A DNA stretch of 10,724 nt from NCBI GenBank assembly GCA_035939715.1, contig DASZFN010000971.1, forward strand, positions 1 through 10,724, given 5' to 3'. The position numbers and the translations under genes are program-made. Each line of letters starts with the position of its first letter. Positions within the stretch are counted from its first letter, which is position 1. The stretch comes from Gemmataceae bacterium (GTDB lineage Bacteria; Planctomycetota; Planctomycetia; Gemmatales; Gemmataceae). Positions 59 through 9,795 of the stretch are shown here, in pieces. The notes below the pieces were generated by a model that saw only the letters and a list, made by a program, of their open reading frames with translations, made no database searches and had not been told where the DNA came from.

Positions 59-601
59 ATGCAAAGCAAAGCGACGACCGTGGAACAGTATCTTTCCGAA
101 TTGCCGGCGGAGCGGCGGGCGGCGCTGGAAGCCGTGCGCAGCGTTGTTCTGGCCAACCTCGACAAGGATTACGAGGAGGGGATGCAGTACGGCATGATCG
201 GCTATTACGTGCCGCACCGCGTCTTTCCCGCCGGCTATCACTGCGATCCGAAGCAGCCCTTGATGTTTGCCGGGCTGGCGTCGCAGAAGAACCACATGGC
301 GCTCTATCTCATGTGCGTCTATGGTCAGGGGCCGTTGGCCGAGTGGTTCCGCGAGGCCTGGGCGAAGACCGGCAAGAAACTCGACATGGGCAAGGCCTGC
401 ATTCGCTTCAAAAAAGTCGAGGATCTGGCGCTCGACGTGATCGGCGCGGCGGTTCAGCGCGTGCCGGTCAAGAAGTATGTCGACAGCTACGTGGAGCTCA
501 GGCGCATGATGGATGCGCGCACGACGAAAGGTCCGCCTGGAAAGAAGACGCGCGGAAAAGCGGGCAAGCAAGCAGCGAAGCCGGTGCGGAAGAAAGCATA
601 A
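59..601 (+). CDS. DUF1801 (YdhG-like) domain protein with Lys/Arg-rich C-terminal tail
   Basis: 180-aa ORF. The N-terminus TTVEQYLSELPAERRAALEAVRSVVLANL...GMQYGMIGYYVP matches the pattern I recall for the DUF1801/YdhG family. The C-terminus is a basic tail (GKKTRGKAGKQAAKPVRKKA). Ends in TAA at 599-601. No clear Shine-Dalgarno (SD) upstream. Confidence 0.8.
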   Translation: MQSKATTVEQYLSELPAERRAALEAVRSVVLANLDKDYEEGMQYGMIGYYVPHRVFPAGYHCDPKQPLMFAGLASQKNHMALYLMCVYGQGPLAEWFREAWAKTGKKLDMGKACIRFKKVEDLALDVIGAAVQRVPVKKYVDSYVELRRMMDARTTKGPPGKKTRGKAGKQAAKPVRKKA

Positions 602-602
602 C

Positions 603-827
603 TCAGCTTGTGGCCAAGCTCTGTTCAGCGAACTCCAACACAGTTACGACTTGCTCGCGGCCGACGCCTGAAAACCAATCGAGGAAGTCATCGACCGTAG
701 CGCCGTCCTCAAGGTTTTCAAAGAGCGACTTCACGGGCACACGAGTCCCGCGGAATACCCACGCGCCACTCATCTTGTCGGCGGAGCGTTCGACCGCTGC
801 ACAATGACGCCAATCAAGCATCGGCAT
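603..827 (-). CDS. DUF433 domain protein (small HTH-like, antitoxin-type fold)
   Basis: The ORF track gives 603..929. I trimmed it to the internal Met (MPMLDWRHC...) because a GAGGTG SD (complement of 832-837) lies 4 nt upstream of the ATG at 825-827. The sequence GAWVFRGTRVPVKSLFENLEDGATVDDFLDWF carries the DUF433-type GTR(I/V)PV core. Stop is TGA at 603-605. Confidence 0.7.
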   Translation of the reverse strand: MPMLDWRHCAAVERSADKMSGAWVFRGTRVPVKSLFENLEDGATVDDFLDWFSGVGREQVVTVLEFAEQSLATS

Positions 828-962: not shown

Positions 963-2639
963 CTAGGCCGGCAATCGTCCCTTCGCTGACAGCGGAGCGG
1001 CTACAGTCTCCGCAGGCGGGACTGCCGGCCCCGGCTTCACGGAAACCACGGTCGCCTCCTTCTGGTCTGCAGCCTTCTCCGGTGTGAGCTTGCCAAAGAA
1101 ATCGGGCAGCTCCACGCCGCCGATGTCTTTCATGACCTGCATGATGGGCGGCATGGTGCGGGCCAGGCCTTGCAGGAAATGCGACGTGGCATTGGCGCCG
1201 TTGCCGTTCGTGCCGTTTTCCCAGACGACCACTTTATCAAACTTGATCTGCGAAATGGCCTGGGCCGATGCCTGGGTGAGGGCGTCGAGATGCTCGAGCA
1301 AGAGCATTTGGAAAGCCGCCTGGGCGCCGCCGCAGGCCTCGATGATCGAGCGCAGACCCTCGCCTTTCTTGGCCAGGATTTCATATTGACCGCGCGCCTC
1401 GGCTTCCAGCTTGGCGAAGATGGCCTTGGCCTGGCCCTCGGCTTCGATGCGGCGTTTTTCCGCCTCGGCCTCGGCTTCCACGATGACCCTGGCCTTTTCC
1501 GCCTTGGCGGGCGCTTCCACGGAGGCACGGCGCTCGGCCTCGACGCGCTCGGCCTGGGCCAGAGCAGCCTTGGCCATGGCGCGGTTCTGCGCCTCCTGCA
1601 CGGCGGCCTCGGCTTCACGCTTGCGCGTTTCGCCGAGCTTGTAGGACTCGGCTTGCTTGACCTGCAAGGCCGCCTGGGCCGCCGCGACCTGCGCCTGGGC
1701 CTCGTTCTCGCCGACAATGGCTTTGGCATTGGCATCGGCCGTGGCGATGCGCATGGCGCGCTCGGCATCCTTGACCTGGGCATCGCGTTCGTAGCAAGCG
1801 GTTTGCTCGCCGACTTTCTGTTCCTTCTCCAGCTGGGCCACGCGCACCGCTTGCTCGCGCTGCGCCTCGCGCATGCCGATCTCGCGCAGCTTGTGGGCGT
1901 TGGCGACCTGGATGGTCTTCTCGCGGTCGGCCTCGGCAACGCCGATCGAGCCCATTTTTTCCTGCTGGGAGACGTCGATGGCGGCCTGCTGGATAGCCTG
2001 CGAAGCCGCTTTCTTGCCGATCGCGGCAATGTAGCCCGACTCGTCGGTGATGTCGGTGATATTCACATTGATGAGCACCAGGCCGATCTTACGCAGCTCG
2101 GGCTCCAGGGAAGTCAGGATCTTATGCAGGAATTGCTCGCGGTGCCGATTGATGTCCTCGATGCACATGGAGGCAATGACCTGGCGGAGCTGGCCGAAGA
2201 TGATGTGCTCGGCCTGGGTCTTGATGTCCTCGGCGCTCAGCCCGAGGAGGCGGATGGCGGCATTATTCATGACCTCGGTCTCGGTGCCGATGGCCACGGT
2301 AAAAATGCTCGGCACATTGACGCGGATGTTTTCGATGGACAGAGCGCCCTTGAGCGGGATCTCGATCTGGATCGGCTCCAGGTTGAGAAAGGCGTGGTCC
2401 TGAACGAGCGGCCAGACAAACGCCGCGCCGCCGCTGACGCATTTGGCGGCGTCGCCGCGACGCACCTTGCCGAATATGACCAGGACGCGGTTAGGCGGAC
2501 AGCGGCGAAAGCGCTTGGCGACGAACGTCAAGATGCTGAACGCGAACAGCGCCAGCGCCACGACGGCGATGACCAGATAGTGCTCGGCGACAAAGCCGCC
2601 CACAGTGGGAACCCTGGCAAGGAGCGCGGTGTACGACAT
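963..2639 (-). CDS. Flotillin / SPFH (band-7) family membrane-microdomain protein, YqiK/FloT-like
   Basis: 558 aa from the Met at 2637-2639 (MSYTALLARV...), with GGAGG (complement of 2648-2652) 8 nt upstream. It has an N-terminal TM helix (HYLVIAVVALALFAFSILTFV), an SPFH core (VLVIFGKV...LNLEPIQIEIPL...) and a long Ala/Glu/Gln/Arg-rich coiled-coil flotillin region. The length is similar to E. coli YqiK (recalled as about 550 aa). Confidence 0.9.
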   Translation of the reverse strand: MSYTALLARVPTVGGFVAEHYLVIAVVALALFAFSILTFVAKRFRRCPPNRVLVIFGKVRRGDAAKCVSGGAAFVWPLVQDHAFLNLEPIQIEIPLKGALSIENIRVNVPSIFTVAIGTETEVMNNAAIRLLGLSAEDIKTQAEHIIFGQLRQVIASMCIEDINRHREQFLHKILTSLEPELRKIGLVLINVNITDITDESGYIAAIGKKAASQAIQQAAIDVSQQEKMGSIGVAEADREKTIQVANAHKLREIGMREAQREQAVRVAQLEKEQKVGEQTACYERDAQVKDAERAMRIATADANAKAIVGENEAQAQVAAAQAALQVKQAESYKLGETRKREAEAAVQEAQNRAMAKAALAQAERVEAERRASVEAPAKAEKARVIVEAEAEAEKRRIEAEGQAKAIFAKLEAEARGQYEILAKKGEGLRSIIEACGGAQAAFQMLLLEHLDALTQASAQAISQIKFDKVVVWENGTNGNGANATSHFLQGLARTMPPIMQVMKDIGGVELPDFFGKLTPEKAADQKEATVVSVKPGPAVPPAETVAAPLSAKGRLPA

Positions 2640-3703: not shown

Positions 3704-6700
3704 ATGCTACAAGGTCGTTTCTCACCCGTGACTCGCGGCAGCCTGGCGATGACCATGCTGGCTGTTGCGGCCGTGGTTTCTCTGAGCCGGCCGGGTAATC
3801 AAGGCGAAGCAGCTTCCGAGAAGCCGGCAGCGGAGTTTGCTATGAAGGGTCATGAGACCTCTGTGGACGTCGGCCAGGAATTCTTTGCCGGCACCTCCGC
3901 GTCCATTCGTTGCGCCGTCCGCGCCGTCAAATCCATCAGCGAAACCGTGCCGCTGCCCGATTCCGAAGTCAATGTGCAACTGCGTGCGAAGGATGGACAG
4001 GCCTTCCCACTGGCGGCCGGGAAGACCGATGCCGGTGGCAATCTGGACGCAACCTTCCGGGTGCCCGAAGTGCCGGCCGGGCAGTACACCTTGGCGGTCG
4101 CCACCCGCTCAACGCTTGGCCAACAAAAGTTGGAACGCACCGTGCAGGTGAAGACCGGCGCGAAGATTCTGCTGGTCACCGATAAGCCGCTCTACCAACC
4201 GGGGCAGATCATGCACATTCGGGCTCTGTCCCTGCGGCCGTTCGACTTGAAGCCGGTGGCCGGCTCGGAGCTGACCTTTGAAGTCGAGGATTCCAAAGGC
4301 AACAAGGTCTACAAACGGACACAAAAGACGTCCGACTTCGGCGTCACCTCGATCGACTTCCAGCTTGCCGATGAAGTCAACATGGGCGATTACCACATCC
4401 GCGCCCTGGTCGGAGATCATCAGACGGACAAAACCGTCACCGTCAAGAAGTATGTGTTGCCCAAGTTCAAGTCGGAACTGTCCGTGGACAAGCGGTTTTA
4501 CATGCCCAAGGAAATCATTCACGCCGATTTGCAGACGGACTATTTCTTCGGCAAACCGGTGGCCAACGGCAAGATAAAGGTGGTTGCCAGCACTTTCGAT
4601 ATCCAGTTCCGCGAGTTTCAAACCTGGGAGGGCCAGACCGATGCGAACGGGCATACCAAGTTTGAAATCAAACTGCCGGATTATTTCGTCGGCCAACCGC
4701 TGCAGAAGGGGGACGCCCTGGTGCGCCTGGAGGCAAAGGTGACGGACACGGCCGATCACATGGAAACCATCAGCAAATCGTACACGGTCAGCGATCAGCC
4801 GATTCGCGTGAGCCTGATTCCCGAGGGCGGCAGGCTGGTGCCCGGCATGGAGAACCGCATCTATGCGGCGGCAATTTACCCGGACGGCAGTCCGGCCGCC
4901 TGCGAGGTCAATCTCTGGATCGGCAGCCAGGCCAAGGATGAGCCGTTTGCTACCGTCAAGACCAACGAAGCCGGGTTGGCGGAGTTCAAGCTGACGCCCA
5001 AGGCGGAGCAGTTGCGGCAAGGTCCGTGGGAACAGAAACCGCTGGAAATGCTGGGCGGCCAGGCCGCCAACGCCTGGGGGCCCAAAATGCTTTTCGATGT
5101 TTTCGTCCAGGTCCGCGACGGCAAGGGCAGCAGCGCTCGCGCGCACGCCGAGATCAACAGCGATCCTCTGGGCGAGAATATCGTCCTGCGGCTCGACAAG
5201 GCGATCTATCGCGCCGGAGACACGCTTAACATGGAAACGCGTTCCTCCGCGGGCTTGCCGACGGTTTATTACGATGTCGTCAAGAATGGCCAGGTGCTCC
5301 TCACGAAATGGCTGGATTTCAAGGACGGCGCCGGACATTACCAGCTCGACCTGCCGGCGGACCTCTTCGGCACGCTGGAAGTGCACGCTTACCAGATGCT
5401 CAGCACCGGCGAGATCATTCGCGATAGCCGCGTGATCTATGTGCAGCCGCGCGACGATCTCAAGATTGCCATCAAGCCGGACAAGGAAGTCCATGTGCCG
5501 GGCGAGAGCGGGCGGATTCATTTCCAGGTGACCGACGCGGAAGGCAAGCCGGCCGCGGCGGCGCTGGGCGTGCTGATCGTGGACGAGGCAGTCTATGCCT
5601 TGCAGGAGATGCAGCCCGGCCTCGAGAAGGTTTACTTCACGCTGCAAGAGGAATTGCTCAAGCCGAAGACAGAGGTCATCTTCAAGCCGCGCGCTTCGAT
5701 CGACACACTGGTGCGCGAGTCTGAGATTCCCGCGGACAAGCAGCAGATCGCCCAGGTGCTGTTGACCTCGGTCAAGCCGAAGCTGCCGAGCCGCTGGCAG
5801 GTGGCGCCGGAGATCGAACGCCGGCAAAAGGTCGAGGAGCAGGTGCAGCAAATCGGCTTCGCCCTGTATAGCTTTGCCGCCAATCAGAATCAGCCAGTGC
5901 TCCGCTACGATGCAGCCGCCAGGCGCTGGGACTTTGACCCGAAGCTGCTGGGGACGGTCCTGAAAGCCCAATATGTGGATGCGGCCGCTCTCAAGAACCC
6001 GCTCGGCGGCCTGTGGACGTTGCAGGACCTGGCCAAACTCGAAAAGGAATTCACCCCCAATCATTTGGCGCGGGCAGTAACGCAAGCGCGGATGCAGCAA
6101 GTATTCTGGACGTTCATCAACTATACGAACGCCAATAAGGGGAACTACTTTCAGAACGGCGAATGGTCCTTCCCCGAAACGGTGCTGACGGCCGCTGCCC
6201 GGAGCCAGCGCCTCGCCGGCTGGTGGCTGAAGGACGCCTGGGGAAAGACGATCAAGCTGGCCAAGCGTGACAAGAAGTCCGAGCACCAGACGGGCTGCAC
6301 GCAACTTGATTACTACGACTTCGTCTCGGCCGGGCCGGATGGAGAGTTCGGCACTGCCGACGATGTGAAACTGCCACCCATGAATGAGTGGCAAAATGCC
6401 ACCTTTTGGTGGAGCAGCGCGGCGCGGCACGGCCAACAGCAAAATTGGCGTAGGCGAGACCTGGCCGGCCGGTGGGGCGGCGGCCCCCGCTTTCGAGGAG
6501 CGGCCTTAGGAGGCATGGGCGGAGGCATGGGTGGCATGAATGCCCCGGGCGCCGCAGCGCCGATGCCCATGGCCGCCTTGCGCATGGAAGTAATGGACAG
6601 AGTTGCGAAGAACGGCGGCGCGGCGAAGCCTGACACCGCTGGCGGCGCCCCACCAGCGACTCGAATTCGCGAGTTCTTCCCTGAGACCATGCTCTGGCAA

Positions 6701-7327
6701 CCCGCCCTCATTACCGATGATCAAGGCAACGCCGAGCTGCCCGTCAGCTTTGCCGACTCCATCACGACGTGGCGGTTGACCGCTTCCGCCTCTTCGCGAT
6801 CTGGGCTGCTGGGCGGCGTGACTGCTCCCCTGCGAGTCTTCCAGGACTTCTTCGTCGATCTCGATCTACCCGTCACGCTGACGCAGAACGATGAAGTCGC
6901 CTTTCCGGTGGCGGTTTACAACTATCTGAAGACTCCGCAAACCGTGAAGCTGGAACTGCAGCGCGAGTCGTGGTTCGACTTGACCGATTCCGCCGACTAC
7001 ACGCGCTCCCTCGAACTTCAGCTCAATGAAGTGACGGCGGTCAAGTTCCGTATCAAGGCCCGGCGCATCGGCGCCCAGCCGCTCCTCGTGAAAGCCTCCG
7101 GCTCCAAGATGTCCGATGCCATCAAGCGGACCATCGAAGTCGTGCCCGACGGCAGCCGCGTGGAAAAGGTCGTGACCGACCGCCTGACGGGAAAGGTCAT
7201 GCAGGTGATCGAAATTCCGGAAGGCGCCATTGCGGACGCCTCCAAGATTCTCGTGAAGCTCTATCCCGGCGTCTTCAGCCAGGTCATGGAAGGGATGGAA
7301 GGCATGCTGCACATGCCGTTTGGCTGA
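3704..7327 (+). CDS. Alpha-2-macroglobulin family protein, N-terminal segment (signal peptide, MG domains, long bait-position insert, A2M domain), ending at the in-frame TGA on the thioester Cys position
   Basis: 1207-aa ORF. It has an N-terminal hydrophobic signal-like segment (MTMLAVAAVVSLSRPG) and repeated beta-rich MG-type modules (e.g. ILLVTDKPLYQPGQIMHIRAL). LIVDEAVYALQE and FFPETMLWQPALITDDQGNAELPVSFADSITTWR are hallmark A2M/C3 family motifs. It ends ...GMLHMPFG-TGA. Confidence 0.9.
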   Translation: MLQGRFSPVTRGSLAMTMLAVAAVVSLSRPGNQGEAASEKPAAEFAMKGHETSVDVGQEFFAGTSASIRCAVRAVKSISETVPLPDSEVNVQLRAKDGQAFPLAAGKTDAGGNLDATFRVPEVPAGQYTLAVATRSTLGQQKLERTVQVKTGAKILLVTDKPLYQPGQIMHIRALSLRPFDLKPVAGSELTFEVEDSKGNKVYKRTQKTSDFGVTSIDFQLADEVNMGDYHIRALVGDHQTDKTVTVKKYVLPKFKSELSVDKRFYMPKEIIHADLQTDYFFGKPVANGKIKVVASTFDIQFREFQTWEGQTDANGHTKFEIKLPDYFVGQPLQKGDALVRLEAKVTDTADHMETISKSYTVSDQPIRVSLIPEGGRLVPGMENRIYAAAIYPDGSPAACEVNLWIGSQAKDEPFATVKTNEAGLAEFKLTPKAEQLRQGPWEQKPLEMLGGQAANAWGPKMLFDVFVQVRDGKGSSARAHAEINSDPLGENIVLRLDKAIYRAGDTLNMETRSSAGLPTVYYDVVKNGQVLLTKWLDFKDGAGHYQLDLPADLFGTLEVHAYQMLSTGEIIRDSRVIYVQPRDDLKIAIKPDKEVHVPGESGRIHFQVTDAEGKPAAAALGVLIVDEAVYALQEMQPGLEKVYFTLQEELLKPKTEVIFKPRASIDTLVRESEIPADKQQIAQVLLTSVKPKLPSRWQVAPEIERRQKVEEQVQQIGFALYSFAANQNQPVLRYDAAARRWDFDPKLLGTVLKAQYVDAAALKNPLGGLWTLQDLAKLEKEFTPNHLARAVTQARMQQVFWTFINYTNANKGNYFQNGEWSFPETVLTAAARSQRLAGWWLKDAWGKTIKLAKRDKKSEHQTGCTQLDYYDFVSAGPDGEFGTADDVKLPPMNEWQNATFWWSSAARHGQQQNWRRRDLAGRWGGGPRFRGAALGGMGGGMGGMNAPGAAAPMPMAALRMEVMDRVAKNGGAAKPDTAGGAPPATRIREFFPETMLWQPALITDDQGNAELPVSFADSITTWRLTASASSRSGLLGGVTAPLRVFQDFFVDLDLPVTLTQNDEVAFPVAVYNYLKTPQTVKLELQRESWFDLTDSADYTRSLELQLNEVTAVKFRIKARRIGAQPLLVKASGSKMSDAIKRTIEVVPDGSRVEKVVTDRLTGKVMQVIEIPEGAIADASKILVKLYPGVFSQVMEGMEGMLHMPFG

Positions 7328-8782
7328 ATGGAGCAGACGTCATCCGCGGCCTACCCGAACATCCTGGCCGTGGATTACCTCAAGAAGGCCCGTGTGGCCT
7401 CTCCTCAGATCCTCATGACCGCGGAGAATTACCTGAACGTCGGCTACCAGAAGCTCCTCACGTTTGAACGGCCAGGCGGCGGCTTTGACTGGTGGGGCAG
7501 CGGCCCGCCCATCGTCTGGCTCAGCGCCTACGGCTTGCAAGAATTCAACGACATGGCCAAGGTCTATCCCATCGACCGCGGCGTCATCGACCGCACCCAG
7601 CAATGGCTCATGAAGCAGCGCGAAGCGGACGGCGCCTGGTCCAACATCGGCGCCACGCACAGCGAAACGATCGCCCAGATGGGCAATCCCAAGCTGCTGC
7701 TGACCAGCTACGTGGTCTGGTCCCTGGTTGATAGCGGCATGCGCATTCCCGAGCTGGAGAAATCGATTAACTATATCCGCAAGCACGTGGACGAGGCGGG
7801 CGACAATGCCTACATCCTCGCGCTGGCTGCCAACGCGCTGGCTGCGTGGGATGCCAAGGACGACAGCACCCTCGTGGTCCTGCAAAAACTGGACAAACTC
7901 AAGGCCGCGAAGCCCGAATGGAAAGCGCTCAGCTTCCCGACGCGAGGCCAATCGCTCAGCTATGCGCACGGCGACAGCCTCACGGTGGAGACCACCGCCC
8001 TGGCCGCCCTGGCCATGTTGAAAACGGACCAGTTCACGAACAGCGTCAACGAAGCGCTGACGTTCCTGGTGAAAAGCAAGCAGTCGAACGGCACCTGGGG
8101 AAGCACGTCGGCGACGATTCTATCGCTCAAGGCCCTGGTCGCCGGCATGAGCGGCACGAAACAGGAAGGCAAGGCCGAGTTTGTTATCAAGGTGAACGGC
8201 AAGGAGGCAGGCAAAGGCGAAGTCACCGAGCAAAACGCCGACGTCCTGCAGGCGTTCGACCTCAAGGAATTCACCCAGCCCGGCCACAACGAAGTCCAGA
8301 TCGATGTGAACGGCAAGACCAACCTTATGTACCAGATCGTCGGCCGGCACTTCGAGCCCTGGAAGCTGCAGCCCGGCATTGCCGGTCAGAAGCCGCCGCT
8401 TGAGGTGACCGTCGATTATGACCGCACCAGTCTCTCGACGGCGGACCTGTTGCGCGCCAAGGCAACCTTACGCTACCATGGCGATCGGCCGACCTACATG
8501 GTGATCGTCGATCTCGGCATCGCTCCCGGTTTCACGGTGGACGCCGGCGATTTCGCGGAAATGGTGAGCCAGAAAAAAATCCAGAAGTTCAGCGTCACGG
8601 CCCGCCAGGTGACCCTCTACCTCGGCGACATCAAGCCGGGCGATGTGAAGACGTTTGAGTACAGCCTGAAGCCGAAATACCCGATCAAGGCCAAGACACC
8701 GGCGACCGTGGCATATGAGTATTACACGCCGGCCAACCAGGCGACGGCTCAACCAGTCGAGTTGGTGGTTGGCGACAGATGA
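3704..8782 (+). CDS. Proposed single alpha-2-macroglobulin gene (1692 codons including one internal UGA): candidate selenoprotein, or else a nonsense-interrupted pseudogene
   Basis: 3704 and 7328 are both congruent to 2 mod 3, so a single TGA (7325-7327) separates the two ORFs. The joined length (1207+1+484) is close to known full-length bacterial A2Ms (E. coli YfhM, recalled as about 1650 aa). The domain order is complete only when the two are joined. Confidence 0.6.
6461..6670 (+). other. Gly/Met/Ala/Pro-rich low-complexity bait-like segment of the A2M
   Basis: GRWGGGPRFRGAALGGMGGGMGGMNAPGAAAPMPMAALRMEVMDRVAKNGGAAKPDTAGGAPPATR lies immediately N-terminal to FFPETMLW, the position of the bait region in characterised A2Ms. 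It contains the tandem DNA repeat ggaggcatgggc/ggaggcatgggt/ggcatg at 6509-6538. Confidence 0.55.
7325..7327 (+). other. In-frame UGA at the thioester-cysteine position of the G-C-x-E-Q motif (candidate Sec codon / nonsense codon)
   Basis: The translation reads PFG-[TGA]-MEQTSS. The family consensus is G-C-x-E-Q (human A2M GCGEQ, E. coli YfhM CLEQ). The Gln partner is retained. Confidence 0.5.
7328..8782 (+). CDS. Alpha-2-macroglobulin family protein, C-terminal segment (thioester domain from x-E-Q onward plus C-terminal beta domain); probably not an independent gene
   Basis: 484-aa ORF in the same frame as 3704..7327, starting MEQTSSAAYPNILAVDYL (continuation of the CxEQ motif). An alpha/alpha-toroid-like TED region follows (GGFDWWGS..., DGAWSN..., NGTWGSTSATILSLKAL), then a C-terminal beta-sandwich region. 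There is no SD within 5-12 nt of the ATG and no signal peptide. True stop is TGA at 8780-8782. Confidence 0.85.
   Translation: MEQTSSAAYPNILAVDYLKKARVASPQILMTAENYLNVGYQKLLTFERPGGGFDWWGSGPPIVWLSAYGLQEFNDMAKVYPIDRGVIDRTQQWLMKQREADGAWSNIGATHSETIAQMGNPKLLLTSYVVWSLVDSGMRIPELEKSINYIRKHVDEAGDNAYILALAANALAAWDAKDDSTLVVLQKLDKLKAAKPEWKALSFPTRGQSLSYAHGDSLTVETTALAALAMLKTDQFTNSVNEALTFLVKSKQSNGTWGSTSATILSLKALVAGMSGTKQEGKAEFVIKVNGKEAGKGEVTEQNADVLQAFDLKEFTQPGHNEVQIDVNGKTNLMYQIVGRHFEPWKLQPGIAGQKPPLEVTVDYDRTSLSTADLLRAKATLRYHGDRPTYMVIVDLGIAPGFTVDAGDFAEMVSQKKIQKFSVTARQVTLYLGDIKPGDVKTFEYSLKPKYPIKAKTPATVAYEYYTPANQATAQPVELVVGDR
7339..7378 (+). other. mRNA hairpin downstream of the UGA (candidate bacterial SECIS-like element)
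   Basis: 7342-7351 (AUCCGCGGCC) pairs with 7366-7375 (GGCCGUGGAU), giving 10 bp (9 Watson-Crick plus 1 G-U) and a 14-nt loop at 7352-7365. Two further pairs (7339-7340 with 7377-7378) follow a 1x1 mismatch. The structure starts 11 nt after the UGA. Confidence 0.4.
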
Positions 8783-8799: not shown

Positions 8800-9207
8800 T
8801 TAATACTCGAAGGTTCTGAGGGATCGCTGTTTGTCAAACTGGACGACAAAGGCATCGAAGAACCCGTCACGGCCTAACAACAGCGGGGCATCGCCTTCGG
8901 CGAAACAAATTGGAAGAAGAATTTCTTTGCGTGCCTCGGCAACAAAAACTGTAACCTCGTGTAGCCTCGCGAGGACGACGCATTCGTCTCGTTGGGAAAC
9001 GCCTCGGATTTCAGTGTGAATTCCTGCATTCCACGTGAGCCCCAGAAGTTCGCACAGTTTCCGAGGGCCGACACTGGTATCCGCGCCAGAGTCTACGACA
9101 AACAACCTACGGGTTCTTCTGCCCTTCGTTCTCTGAAACGACACATAAAGAACCGGGGTGAGAACACCGTTCTCTTCCAGCAATGCCCATGGTTTCGTGA
9201 ACTTCAT
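8800..9207 (-). CDS. Retropepsin-like (clan AA) single-domain aspartic protease
   Basis: 135 aa. It has the catalytic D-S-G-A signature in hydrophobic context (LFVVDSGADTSV) and the C-terminal LLLGRDGFFDAFVVQFD motif typical of prokaryotic retropepsin-like proteases. Its start codon overlaps the stop of the upstream gene (ATGA, 9204-9207). Confidence 0.8.
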   Translation of the reverse strand: MKFTKPWALLEENGVLTPVLYVSFQRTKGRRTRRLFVVDSGADTSVGPRKLCELLGLTWNAGIHTEIRGVSQRDECVVLARLHEVTVFVAEARKEILLPICFAEGDAPLLLGRDGFFDAFVVQFDKQRSLRTFEY

Positions 9208-9482
9208 CGGTAGACAATTCGTCCAGGTCTTTCTAAACGCGCCACCACAATTCTATCCTGATCAATGTCGCCCAGGTTTTTGTAGAGGTCCTCCATCGTA
9301 TCCCCGAAGGCAACAATCTGGCAGTCCTTTGCAGCGATCCACTTACCCCGATACTGGCGCAGAATGTCGGATGGCAGGTGGGTAAGCCAGTCAGCAGTGG
9401 AATCGGTCGCGCGGATGATCTCTTCTTCCTCCGGGGTCGGATGCCAATCCTTGATGATCGCCTTGGTAGTCTTTCTAATCAT
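9204..9482 (-). CDS. Small protein resembling DUF5678-type partners of retropepsin-like proteases
   Basis: I trimmed the 124-aa track ORF to the Met at 9480-9482 (MIRKTTKAIIKDW...), which has GGGAGG 6 nt upstream. The longer form would overlap the upstream DUF433 gene by 65 nt. The C-terminal half (YRGKWIAAKDCQIVAFGDTMEDLYKNLGDIDQDRIVVARL) matches the Y-x-GKW-[VI]-A...V-A-x-G-D pattern I recall for DUF5678. The family assignment is from memory, not from a search. Confidence 0.6.
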   Translation of the reverse strand: MIRKTTKAIIKDWHPTPEEEEIIRATDSTADWLTHLPSDILRQYRGKWIAAKDCQIVAFGDTMEDLYKNLGDIDQDRIVVARLERPGRIVYR

Positions 9483-9513
9483 GGGTTGCCTCCCGCGCCG
9501 CGAGTTTATCAAC

Positions 9514-9795
9514 CTATTCGTCATCCTCTTCATTCGCGCGAATTGCCTGTTCGATTTCCCGCGAGTTATGCCGAGCATACTCCCGCGCTGCTGCCAGGTC
9601 TGCCCGCGTTAGCGAGGGGTAGTTGTCAAGTATCTGTTGCTCCGTCAACCCCTTTCCCTTTAGGGAATTCAGCAACCATACCATGATTCGCGTGTTTCGG
9701 ATACACGCGTCGCCACCGCAGACTCCGGCTGTCTTCCGAATCAGCGGCTCTCCGGCCGCGTCTACCGCTACTGCTTTTGACTCTAAAGCGCTCAT
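9514..9795 (-). CDS. DUF433 domain protein
   Basis: 93 aa. GVCGGDACIRNTRIMVWLLNSLKGKGLTEQQILDNYPSLTRADLAAAREYARHN is a good match to the DUF433 pattern (GxCGGxPxIxxTRIxV...YPxLxxxDIxAAxxY). A GAGGA SD lies 7 nt upstream of the ATG. It has an acidic C-terminal tail (EEDDE). Confidence 0.85.
   Translation of the reverse strand: MSALESKAVAVDAAGEPLIRKTAGVCGGDACIRNTRIMVWLLNSLKGKGLTEQQILDNYPSLTRADLAAAREYARHNSREIEQAIRANEEDDE

Follow-up and report, generated by a model that had tools for sequence, protein, structure and literature searches.

The window analysed here, the whole 10,724-nucleotide stretch of contig DASZFN010000971.1 from a Gemmataceae bacterium, carries on its forward strand a gene of the alpha-2-macroglobulin (A2M)/TEP family whose 1692 codons contain a single internal stop, a TGA (Table 1). 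In the part before this TGA, Pfam recognises MG2 (E 4.7e-25), A2M (3.8e-21), A2M_BRD (2.2e-11) and MG3 (1.2e-6), and in the part after it (7328..8779) TED_complement (5.7e-38) and A2M_recep (3.3e-12); the domain order of the A2M/TEP proteins (MG domains, bait-region domain, A2M, TED, receptor-binding) is present. The PDB matches of the protein are CD109, C3, A2ML1, A2M and TEP1, with E-values from 2e-16 to 1e-6. Its N-terminus is signal-peptide-like, the most hydrophobic 19-mer being residues 9-27 with a Kyte-Doolittle 19-residue average of 1.65. The neighbouring ORFs in the window encode an SPFH/Band_7 protein, a DUF5678 protein and unannotated products, and there are no gsp or pil genes among them. 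Between the Pfam limits of A2M_BRD (ORF residues 495-633) and A2M (995-1085) the protein has a long insert, and it is this insert and the internal TGA that concern us here.

Table 1. Features of the A2M-like gene and of its insert (window coordinates; residues in ORF numbering).
Feature	ORF residues	Position	Strand	Basis or remark
N-terminal 1207 codons, A2M/TEP-family gene		3704..7324	+	ORF list, translation, Pfam; C-terminus ...EGMLHMPFG directly before the thioester position
361-residue insert	634-994	5603..6685	+	Gap between Pfam A2M_BRD and A2M, the bait/anaphylatoxin position of the superfamily
Partial first pilin-like unit	~677-777	5732..6034	+	Long helix, short hairpin, D/N-P-x-G-G strand
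GspG-like head module, confidently modelled	759-912	5978..6439	+	26-residue helix (ORF 785-810), alpha-beta loop, two strands, calcium loop
Core aligning to E. coli GspG residues 64-139	819-892	6158..6379	+	hhalign, PDB profile matches
Motif DAWG...VSAGPDGEFGTADDV	844-888	6233..6367	+	Translation and BLASTP; within the BRD-A2M gap
Predicted calcium-binding loop SAGPDGEFGTADD	875-887	6326..6364	+	Correspondence to PulG/OutG ligands, column conservation
Disordered low-complexity Gly/Met/Ala/Pro/Arg linker	925-994	6476..6685	+	AF2; ends at alpha'NT-like REFFPETMLW
In-frame TGA at the thioester Cys position, G-[TGA]-M-E-Q, candidate selenocysteine codon		7325..7327	+	Sequence
C-terminal 484 codons, TED and receptor-binding (MG8-like)		7328..8782	+	Pfam; frame shared with 3704..7327
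SECIS-like hairpin downstream of the TGA		7338..7379	+	Folding energy -28.3 kcal/mol, z -2.4

A sequence-only reading of this DNA had drawn attention to a pattern inside the insert which it took for the hallmark of GspG-type major pseudopilins. The motif is certainly there: the forward strand at 6233-6367 translates as DAWGKTIKLAKRDKKSEHQTGCTQLDYYDFVSAGPDGEFGTADDV, residues 844-888 of ORF 3704..7327, and BLASTP finds 13 identities in 18 positions with E. coli K-12 GspG (YDFVSAGPDGEFGTADDV / YDLLSAGPDGEMGTEDDI; E 5e-8, a value valid for that pairwise comparison only). Among the homologues, D-x-W-G, S-x-G-x-D and D-D are the sole invariant columns of the insert, and this pattern, together with the BLASTP match, places the resemblance far above chance. 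Its calcium-loop part alone (GxDGxxGTxDD; profile positions 101-123) also matches giant SdrD_B repeat proteins, and the loop by itself is not specific to GspG. Moreover, the motif covers only the C-terminal third (two strands and the calcium loop) of a folded module that extends over about ORF 785-892, and for which an alpha/beta pilin fold is predicted, with a long helix packed against a C-terminal antiparallel sheet.

The relationship of this module to GspG was assessed with several insert profiles, A2 being restricted to Gemmataceae, A3 spanning phyla and A4 being A3 rebuilt from database proteins. The Pfam model T2SSG (PF08334), against which the earlier reading had suggested searching, recognises 21 of the 43 insert segments from orthologues (best E 7.1e-9) but not the window's own copy, which lies below every Pfam and NCBIfam threshold in direct scans of the insert; consequently, the link to GspG rests on the orthologues and on the profiles. 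Against the PDB, A3 retrieves five GspG/PulG/XcpT chains (E 8.5e-9 to 6.8e-5), with alignments spanning profile positions 42-130 and chain residues 21-114, and its top eight matches all belong to the GspG family. Compared by hhalign with E. coli GspG, A3 gives a probability of 98.0% (E 2.9e-13) and A2 one of 96.2% (E 2.4e-9). The GspG chains among the top five PDB matches of A2 (E 0.34-0.57) are non-significant taken alone, and significance there came with A3. A single-sequence phmmer search of the insert against the PDB yielded no GspG, merely noise (cubilin, cullin-7 and NLRP4 at E 0.5-0.9), and the Foldseek matches were non-significant (E 0.36-1.7). Significant similarity to GspG was nonetheless obtained in three ways, from T2SSG, from the PDB and from hhalign, and the idea of a pseudopilin-derived head withstands the comparison that might have undone it.

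The absence of a prepilin N-terminus, which had also been remarked upon from the sequence, is borne out. There is no Pfam N_methyl match at E up to 1, a regular-expression search of the ORF for the prepilin motif G[FMLIVY][TS][LIVM][LIVMT]E (G-F-T-L-I-E-like) finds none, and the hydrophobic N-terminal alpha1N helix is missing, the highest Kyte-Doolittle 19-residue average in the insert being 0.65 (compare 1.65 in the signal peptide). Having lost both the prepilin leader and this helix, the module cannot assemble into a filament. We regard it as very probable that the gene encodes an A2M-like protein with a leaderless GspG-type pseudopilin head lodged between the two halves of its MG6 domain.

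The calcium ligands of PulG and OutG are D117, S/T122, D125 and possibly D124 (PMC13081927). These correspond to D880, T885, D887 and possibly D886 of the window protein, and all four equivalents are present in its GPD-G-EFG-T-A-DD segment. All four family alignments (A1-A4) keep the Asp of GPDG without exception; three of them do so for each of the two C-terminal Asp, which in the remaining one is still conserved to at least 90%; and the Thr column is conserved to at least 90% in A1, A2 and A4 and to at least 70% in A3. Such conserved ligands fit a module that would act as a calcium-binding structural element.

Of 81 related loci, which come from many phyla, 76 are matched by an HMM of the module, and three of the other five are truncated contigs; other A2M-family proteins do therefore carry it, a point on which the earlier reading had proposed a survey. 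The locus L037 shows four such HMM matches, L055 and L062 none. Full-length relatives have MG2, MG3, BRD, A2M, TED and receptor-binding domains, and the clade consists of secreted bacterial A2M-like proteins from Planctomycetota, Armatimonadota, Hydrogenedentota, myxobacteria-like MAGs and other phyla. While the capture of a pseudopilin head is well in keeping with the T2SSG, PDB and hhalign matches, it is old and family-wide and was no event private to the window gene. The same leaderless module also exists on its own. In an exhaustive profile search, the head-only tandem proteins P0131 and P0159 match T2SSG at E 2.8e-25 and 1.9e-23, and these two along with P0117 and P0140 match the insert profile at E ~1e-16 to 1e-10. 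Unlike the window protein, these four are small and free-standing, with two or three tandem modules, an N-terminus that is signal-peptide-like or a membrane anchor, and no A2M scaffold. The occurrence of leaderless GspG heads in both settings, the A2M insert and the tandem-head proteins, bears on how the pilin fold has evolved outside filaments.

The module is preceded in the insert by a partial pilin-like unit, in which AF2 places a helix at ORF 702-727. A profile of the N-terminal half of the insert (A5) aligns with the module profile A3 over 98 columns (hhalign probability 97.8%, E 7.6e-13) and has no similarity to E. coli GspG by the same method (probability 0.1%), so that it matches the module profile only. 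A partial HMM match (profile positions ~35-95) is found upstream of the full match in nine related loci. Either the module has been half duplicated to give this partial unit, or the unit corresponds to the N-half of the single module that the short-type relatives have. The cassette as a whole runs from a conserved flexible segment through the half pilin-like unit and the full GspG-like head to a 70-residue disordered linker and finally to REFFPETMLW.

The linker has AF2 pLDDT values of 32-41. Its equivalents in 62 relatives vary from 48 to 244 residues (A 17.6%, G 15.8%, P 9.6%, R 7.7%, M 6.8%) and are so variable that they cannot be aligned between homologues. Probably, this disordered, hypervariable stretch is the true protease bait. 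The earlier reading had placed the pseudopilin-like motif itself at the bait position; the motif does lie in the BRD-A2M gap, but the separate linker beside the module is the better candidate for the bait. Where the linker ends, REFFPETMLW (ORF 989-998) aligns with RSQFPESWLW of C3 (alpha-chain residue 93, C3b alpha' residue 16), and in the alignment with human A2M the first aligned residue is 726. On the evidence of this alignment, the segment is homologous to the alpha'NT of C3.

The second peculiarity of the gene is the TGA, which occupies the codon of the thioester cysteine; because of this, the C-x-E-Q thioester motif is complete only if the TGA is read as selenocysteine. Gene callers split the gene at this point. 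Among 80 thioester sites, 16 have TGA (that of the window and 15 in related loci, two of them in the single locus L041) and the other 64 have TGC or TGT. The MAGs JBGQKZ01, DATLYH01 and CAWDRY01 are examples with TGA, and the L008 gene of chromosome OY969623.1 is an example of a full-length Cys-type orthologue. The hairpins downstream are on average more stable in the TGA genes than in the Cys genes (-22.5 versus -13.7 kcal/mol; Mann-Whitney p 6e-8), and this is also the case when TGA and Cys genes with the near-identical peptide TSS[AS]AYPN[IV]L are compared (8.9 versus 6.85 of 10 core pairs; -19.7 versus -11.8 kcal/mol). Pairing is seen in 81.5% of cells as against 28-51% in slid controls, and there are three compensatory pairs. 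When the 16 sequences downstream of the TGA codons were folded together with RNAalifold, no consensus structure emerged, and the lineages L033 and L041 place the hairpin in another register. The hairpin loop shows no obvious E. coli-type GGUC, and an Rfam scan of the window returned no family. A global reassignment of TGA was rejected, there being only one internal TGA in the 1692 codons and the gene's own terminator being a TGA; a pseudogene or a sequencing error was likewise rejected, as the codon recurs at 15 further related sites in several lineages. The alternation of TGA and Cys codons among the related loci, together with the stronger hairpins of the TGA copies, makes a selenocysteine site likely, and we hold this candidate assignment with fair assurance. 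If some members of the family have indeed exchanged Cys for selenocysteine, this would be a rare case of the residue in a covalent-capture warhead instead of a redox site.

Our preferred reading combines the homology of the head with a calcium-stabilised structural role beside the bait, and as a whole we give it somewhat better than an even chance. The hypervariable disordered linker would be the protease bait, and the GspG-like head a calcium-stabilised, protease-resistant domain at the position that the anaphylatoxin domain holds in C3/C4/C5, where it would keep the cassette compact and confine cleavage to the linker. After cleavage, the head would stay on the N-terminal fragment, and the C-terminal part would rearrange to expose the reactive (seleno)thioester. 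The functional component of this proposal, namely that the head sits beside the bait as a structural stopper stabilised by calcium, is more tentative and in our view has rather under an even chance of being correct. Since the placement of the module relative to the MG domains is unreliable in the AF2 model of 616 residues (pTM 0.46), either a stopper or an anaphylatoxin-like role is deduced solely from position in the sequence. That the head might work as a conformational wedge in the manner of the anaphylatoxin domain (ANA) seems doubtful. It is unlikely, a shade more so, that the entire cassette does in bacteria what the anaphylatoxin/alpha'NT switch does in C3, with a calcium-dependent head wedge displaced by bait cleavage and thereby firing a selenocysteine selenoester; were it true, this would be an activation module of a thioester protein made from a part of a secretion pilus, combined with a non-redox use of selenocysteine.

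Other roles for the head have to be considered. It could itself serve as the bait, or as one of the bait's parts under calcium control, unfolding at low calcium and then becoming sensitive to proteases, which would give a calcium-dependent trap. PulG does become disordered and is degraded without calcium, although OutG is stable without it and the dependence is thus not universal (PMC13081927). In the insert no residues are better conserved than the calcium ligands, and the module lies within the bait gap; nevertheless, bait regions are normally hypervariable, whereas the module is strongly conserved, and the disordered, hypervariable linker that comes after it is separate and has the properties typical of a bait. 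We find this explanation quite unlikely. Alternatively, the head could be a decoy that imitates exposed pilin or pseudopilin surfaces and lures pilus-attacking proteases, as the earlier reading had imagined. The pilin-head homology is its one argument, and the subunit contacts of real filaments bury a large part of the head surface, along with the N-terminal helix that is missing here; furthermore, the conserved positions are residues of the fold and of the calcium site, not of surface loops. With a generic low-complexity bait alongside the module, and that linker being the better bait candidate, the decoy idea is left without support and is improbable. Just as improbable is a docking or export function, in which the head would bind the type II secretion (T2SS) or type IV pilus machinery, or a pseudopilus, and so route or anchor the A2M protein. 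Contacts of pseudopilin heads with T2SS components and with substrates are on record (PMC13081927), and a signal-peptide-like N-terminus marks the protein for export, but gsp and pil genes are absent from the window, very dissimilar phyla have kept the module, and it is inserted at the functional bait/ANA site and not at a terminus. Finally, a generic calcium loop of the SdrD_B type, similar to GspG by coincidence or convergence, would account for the match of profile positions 101-123 to SdrD_B repeats and for the want of a Pfam match in the window's own sequence, but is contradicted by the T2SSG matches of the orthologues, the 98.0% hhalign probability and the GspG chains in the PDB, and is hardly credible.

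A pseudopilin-derived head in this place has a wider significance in that the activation of A2M, complement and TEP proteins depends on the insertion point in MG6, which is occupied by the bait in A2M and, in C3/C4/C5, by the anaphylatoxin domain. A pilin-fold domain from a type II secretion pseudopilin, conserved across many bacterial phyla, is a third solution at this point, and with the cassette comes a model, open to testing, of how calcium might control a protease trap. Annotation at present calls these proteins no more than 'alpha-2-macroglobulin family protein', and in many copies the module is below the Pfam threshold. The literature that we searched contains nothing that joins 'macroglobulin', 'pseudopilin' and 'bacterial', and the arrangement is undescribed there; nor did that search find a selenocysteine-containing A2M or a non-redox use of selenocysteine of this kind. 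The selenoproteome papers that it listed do not mention macroglobulin, and neither thioester nor A2M occurs in the main texts that were consulted. A preprint on the CAGE complex speaks of bait regions and of Planctomycetes but has no connection with the present proteins.

Compared with the head of GspG/PulG/EpsG (T2SSG, PF08334), the module has no prepilin leader, N-methylation motif or hydrophobic alpha1N helix, it has about 10 extra residues between the strands (KRDKKSEHQTGCTQ), and it is internal to a protein of 1692 codons that, judging by its neighbours in the window, lies outside any gsp operon. With the baits of human A2M and of the bacterial ECAM / SaA2M the insert shares the site between A2M_BRD and A2M and the presence of a disordered, hypervariable stretch. 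Known baits are short and unstructured, with some 30-40 residues; here, in contrast, the gap measures 361 residues and contains one and a half folded pilin-like units. Among the PDB matches listed for the module profile at E up to 1 there is no A2M, TEP or complement chain. In C3/C4/C5 the topological position is the same: a small, folded, largely helical insertion in MG6, then a scissile segment, then R-x-x-F-P-E-(S/T)-W/M-L-W. From this we infer that the GspG-like head may be functionally analogous to ANA, but the two are unrelated in fold and origin, one being a pilin head and the other a disulfide-rich four-helix bundle, and, in place of an evident specific convertase site, the bacterial protein has a long low-complexity linker after the module.

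The motif that the sequence-only reading had noticed at 6233-6367 is real and lies where it was said to lie, although the domain to which it belongs proved larger than this span. The plus strand there encodes DAWGKTIKLAKRDKKSEHQTGCTQLDYYDFVSAGPDGEFGTADDV, residues 844-888 of ORF 3704..7327, and the Pfam domain layout (see the table) puts this translation inside the A2M insert. By these domain boundaries, the motif falls in a 361-residue gap, which is where an A2M/complement-like thioester protein has its bait. The host protein belongs to the A2M/TEP family. Its neighbours in the window include, on the minus strand, genes for a 570-aa SPFH/Band_7 protein (963-2675) and a small DUF5678 protein (9204-9578). 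The remaining flanking ORFs in the window had no Pfam match, and neither secretion-system, pilus or PBP1c-type partner genes within the window nor gsp genes near the A2M gene were found.

Features of the A2M-type gene and its bait cassette (ORF residues are those of ORF 3704..7327)
Feature	ORF residues	Window	Strand	Remarks
ORF 3704..7327		3704-7327	+	1207 codons; MG2, MG3, A2M_BRD, A2M (Pfam)
A2M_BRD	495-633		+	Pfam
Conserved flexible segment	633-662		+	MQPGLEKVYFTLQEELLKP...; pLDDT <50
Insert gap	634-994	5603-6685	+	361 residues, between A2M_BRD and A2M
First helix-hairpin unit	~677-777	5732-6034	+	partial pilin-like, helix to D/N-P-x-G-G strand
Full module	759-912 (confidently folded part)	5978-6439	+	after first unit in cassette; pLDDT 90-97
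Disordered linker	925-994	6476-6685	+	pLDDT 32-41
A2M domain	995-1085		+	Pfam
In-frame TGA		7325-7327	+	exactly at thioester Cys position of C-x-E-Q; reads PFG-TGA-MEQ
Hairpin		7338-7379	+	SECIS-like, downstream of TGA
Next ORF		7328..8782	+	TED_complement and A2M_recep (Pfam)

The window's own insert copy gave no match in Pfam and NCBIfam scans, nor in a PDB search as a single sequence, so the evidence for homology rests on its relatives. Searching a database with the insert brought up 48 homologues; in their alignments, no insert columns other than those of D-x-W-G, V-S-A-G-P-D and T-x-D-D are invariant or nearly so. Scanning one genome per species yielded 80 related loci in many phyla, about 60 of which match the regular expression of the motif; in distant loci its first element reads DPWG, as in GspG. 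Although Pfam T2SSG (PF08334) does not match the window copy, it matches 21 of the 43 orthologous insert segments in the cross-phylum alignment A3 (E up to 0.01, best 7.1e-9). The best eight PDB matches of the A3 profile are all of the GspG family; EHEC GspG 3g20_A was matched at E 8.5e-9, 29jd_A at 6.5e-8, PulG 1t92_A/5wda_A at ~5e-6 and 2kep_A at 6.8e-5. The PDB matches span profile positions 42-130 and chain residues 21-114, nearly the whole soluble head, and no A2M, TEP or complement chain occurs among those of the module profile with E up to 1. In hhalign comparisons with E. coli K-12 GspG (reference sequence from NC_000913.3), A3 matched GspG residues 64-139 with 98.0% probability (E 2.9e-13), and the Gemmataceae-only alignment A2 gave 96.2% (E 2.4e-9); pairwise BLASTP of the window's module against E. 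coli GspG found 13/18 identities (E 5e-8).

The AlphaFold2 model of ORF 759-912, with the 50-sequence alignment A4 as input (pLDDT 93.1, pTM 0.84), shows a helix of 26 residues, after which come short helices and two strands. In a Foldseek search of the PDB, pseudopilins took seven of the top eight ranks, but at E 0.36-1.7. OutG/PulG bind calcium through the side chains of D117, T/S122 and D125, possibly D124, and through two backbone carbonyls (PMC13081927). These side chains align with D880, T885, D886 and D887 of the window's GPDGEFGTADD, and the ligand-equivalent columns are exactly the invariant or near-invariant ones of the insert family, a conservation that leads us to predict a calcium site in the module. 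Sequence profile, predicted fold and calcium ligands assign the module to the T2SSG head-domain family, which supports the earlier proposal that a pseudopilin globular head had been captured.

The absence of a prepilin N-terminus is likewise borne out: Pfam found no N_methyl domain in the A2M ORFs, the A2M ORF has no G-F-T-L-I-E-like motif, and the insert is without any hydrophobic stretch (maximum 19-residue hydropathy 0.65). Lacking leader, hydrophobic helix and gsp operon context, all of the features that define a functional pseudopilin of the GspG type, the module amounts to a bare head, unable to serve as a filament subunit. Nor is it private to this gene: the A3 HMM found it in 76 of 81 loci, and its capture is family-wide and ancient. 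The five misses are three truncated contigs and the Verrucomicrobiota loci L055 and L062; these last two (Limisphaerales) hold full-length A2M-gene relatives that are negative with the module HMM and may represent natural controls without the module.

When the A2 profile was run exhaustively against 1.84 billion representative proteins, 523 of them matched at E up to 1e-3. Some are A2M-type proteins of full length that carry the module between BRD and A2M, others are free-standing and made up of two or three T2SSG heads without a leader (Pfam T2SSG E 2.8e-25 in P0131 and 1.9e-23 in P0159), and a third group comprises giant SdrD_B repeat proteins in which only the calcium-loop part of the profile is matched. 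The tandem-head proteins P0131, P0159, P0117, P0140 and P0186 have no prepilin leader and score above the Pfam T2SSG cutoff; signal-peptide-like N-termini are seen in P0131 and P0159. Such leaderless pseudopilin-head repeat proteins appear to be an uncharacterised class. In P0107, P0168 and other giants, many SdrD_B-protein repeats match GxDGxxGTxDD alone, so this loop is shared beyond pilins and is not by itself diagnostic of GspG homology.

The remainder of the cassette was examined in a 616-residue model of ORF 495-1110, built with alignment A6 (pLDDT 77.8, pTM 0.46). Near its start, MQPGLEKVYFTLQEELLKP (window ~5609-5665, ORF 636-654) is among the most conserved stretches of the insert across homologues, yet is predicted to be disordered. 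The first helix-hairpin unit matches the module profile (97.8% probability, hhalign), and a partial HMM match lies upstream of the full one in nine loci, with four matches in L037; the long-type insert thus holds about 1.5 modules. Unit number varies among the relatives: one in short-type inserts, about 1.5 in the window and more in some. The linker (…GGMGGGMGGMNAPGAAAPMPMAA…) is of low complexity, rich in Gly, Met, Ala, Pro and Arg, and ranges from 48 to 244 residues among 62 relatives, between which it cannot be aligned. Disorder, hypervariability and unalignability are classic properties of a bait.

The bait cassette of this A2M clade, then, includes as a conserved and integral part a GspG-type head that lacks a leader and has conserved calcium ligands; a separate disordered, hypervariable linker comes after this head. 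The head does lie inside the bait gap, as first described, but it is probably the linker next to it that acts as the true bait. We propose that the linker would be the protease bait and the head a calcium-stabilised, protease-resistant structural element, positionally equivalent to an anaphylatoxin domain, which would confine cleavage to the linker and remain with the N-terminal fragment once the trap fires. That the head is itself a calcium-gated bait would make use of the same predicted calcium site; we consider this unlikely, the bait-like properties being those of the linker. Quite improbable, and equally so, are a pilin decoy, for which we found no support, and docking of the head to a secretion machinery, partner genes for which were not seen in the window. 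A coincidental motif match is scarcely credible, contradicted as it is by the T2SSG matches in orthologues, the hhalign result with E. coli GspG and the A3 matches to PDB GspG chains.

Of greater interest than the module itself is the locus as a whole, on account of the probable selenocysteine at its thioester site. The two A2M ORFs (3704..7327 and 7328..8782) are one gene in one frame, split by a single TGA, and all ten database homologues that reach the thioester point stop at the same residue. Among 80 sites the thioester codon is TGC/TGT in 64 and TGA in 16, namely the window and 15 sites in related loci (L001, L002, L009, L013, L014, L015, L022, L025, L027, L029, L033, L036, L037 and, twice, L041). 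Mean folding energy of the 70 nt downstream of the codon is -22.5 kcal/mol in TGA genes versus -13.7 in Cys genes (p 6e-8). In a near-identical-peptide control (TSS[AS]AYPN[IV]L) at equal GC, TGA genes form 8.9/10 core pairs at -19.7 kcal/mol versus 6.85/10 at -11.8 kcal/mol in Cys genes. Across 12 TGA genes, 81.5% of the hairpin's cells are paired, versus 28-51% in slid controls, with three compensatory pairs. No Rfam family matched the window, no structure common to all TGA lineages was found downstream of the codon, and no E. coli-type motif is obvious in the apical loop. As read from the sequences, the TGA/Cys pattern with its hairpin is characteristic of a Sec/Cys pair accompanied by a SECIS-like element, and the TGA is probably a selenocysteine (selenoester) site, a candidate for which we found no report in the literature searched; the selenoproteome papers among it yielded no mention of a macroglobulin, nor, in the main texts examined, of a thioester or A2M. 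Many database homologues of the insert are fragments even on 100-800 kb contigs (e.g. P0006, P0014, P0016, P0025), and some end in frameshift-like garbage tails; gene prediction for the family often breaks at the TGA and probably also where the low-complexity linker has been misassembled.

What is new here is a pilin-type domain at the activation site of the well-known A2M scaffold; no report treating macroglobulin and pseudopilin together in bacteria was found in the literature searched. In C3, the LNK segment occupies the position equal to that of MQPGLEKVYFTLQEELLKP. The linker terminates at REFFPETMLW, with which RSQFPESWLW of C3 aligns at alpha-chain residue 93 (alpha' residue 16), the first aligned residue of human A2M being 726. 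By this alignment, the cassette takes the position held in C3 by LNK, ANA and the scissile site, and in A2M by the bait.
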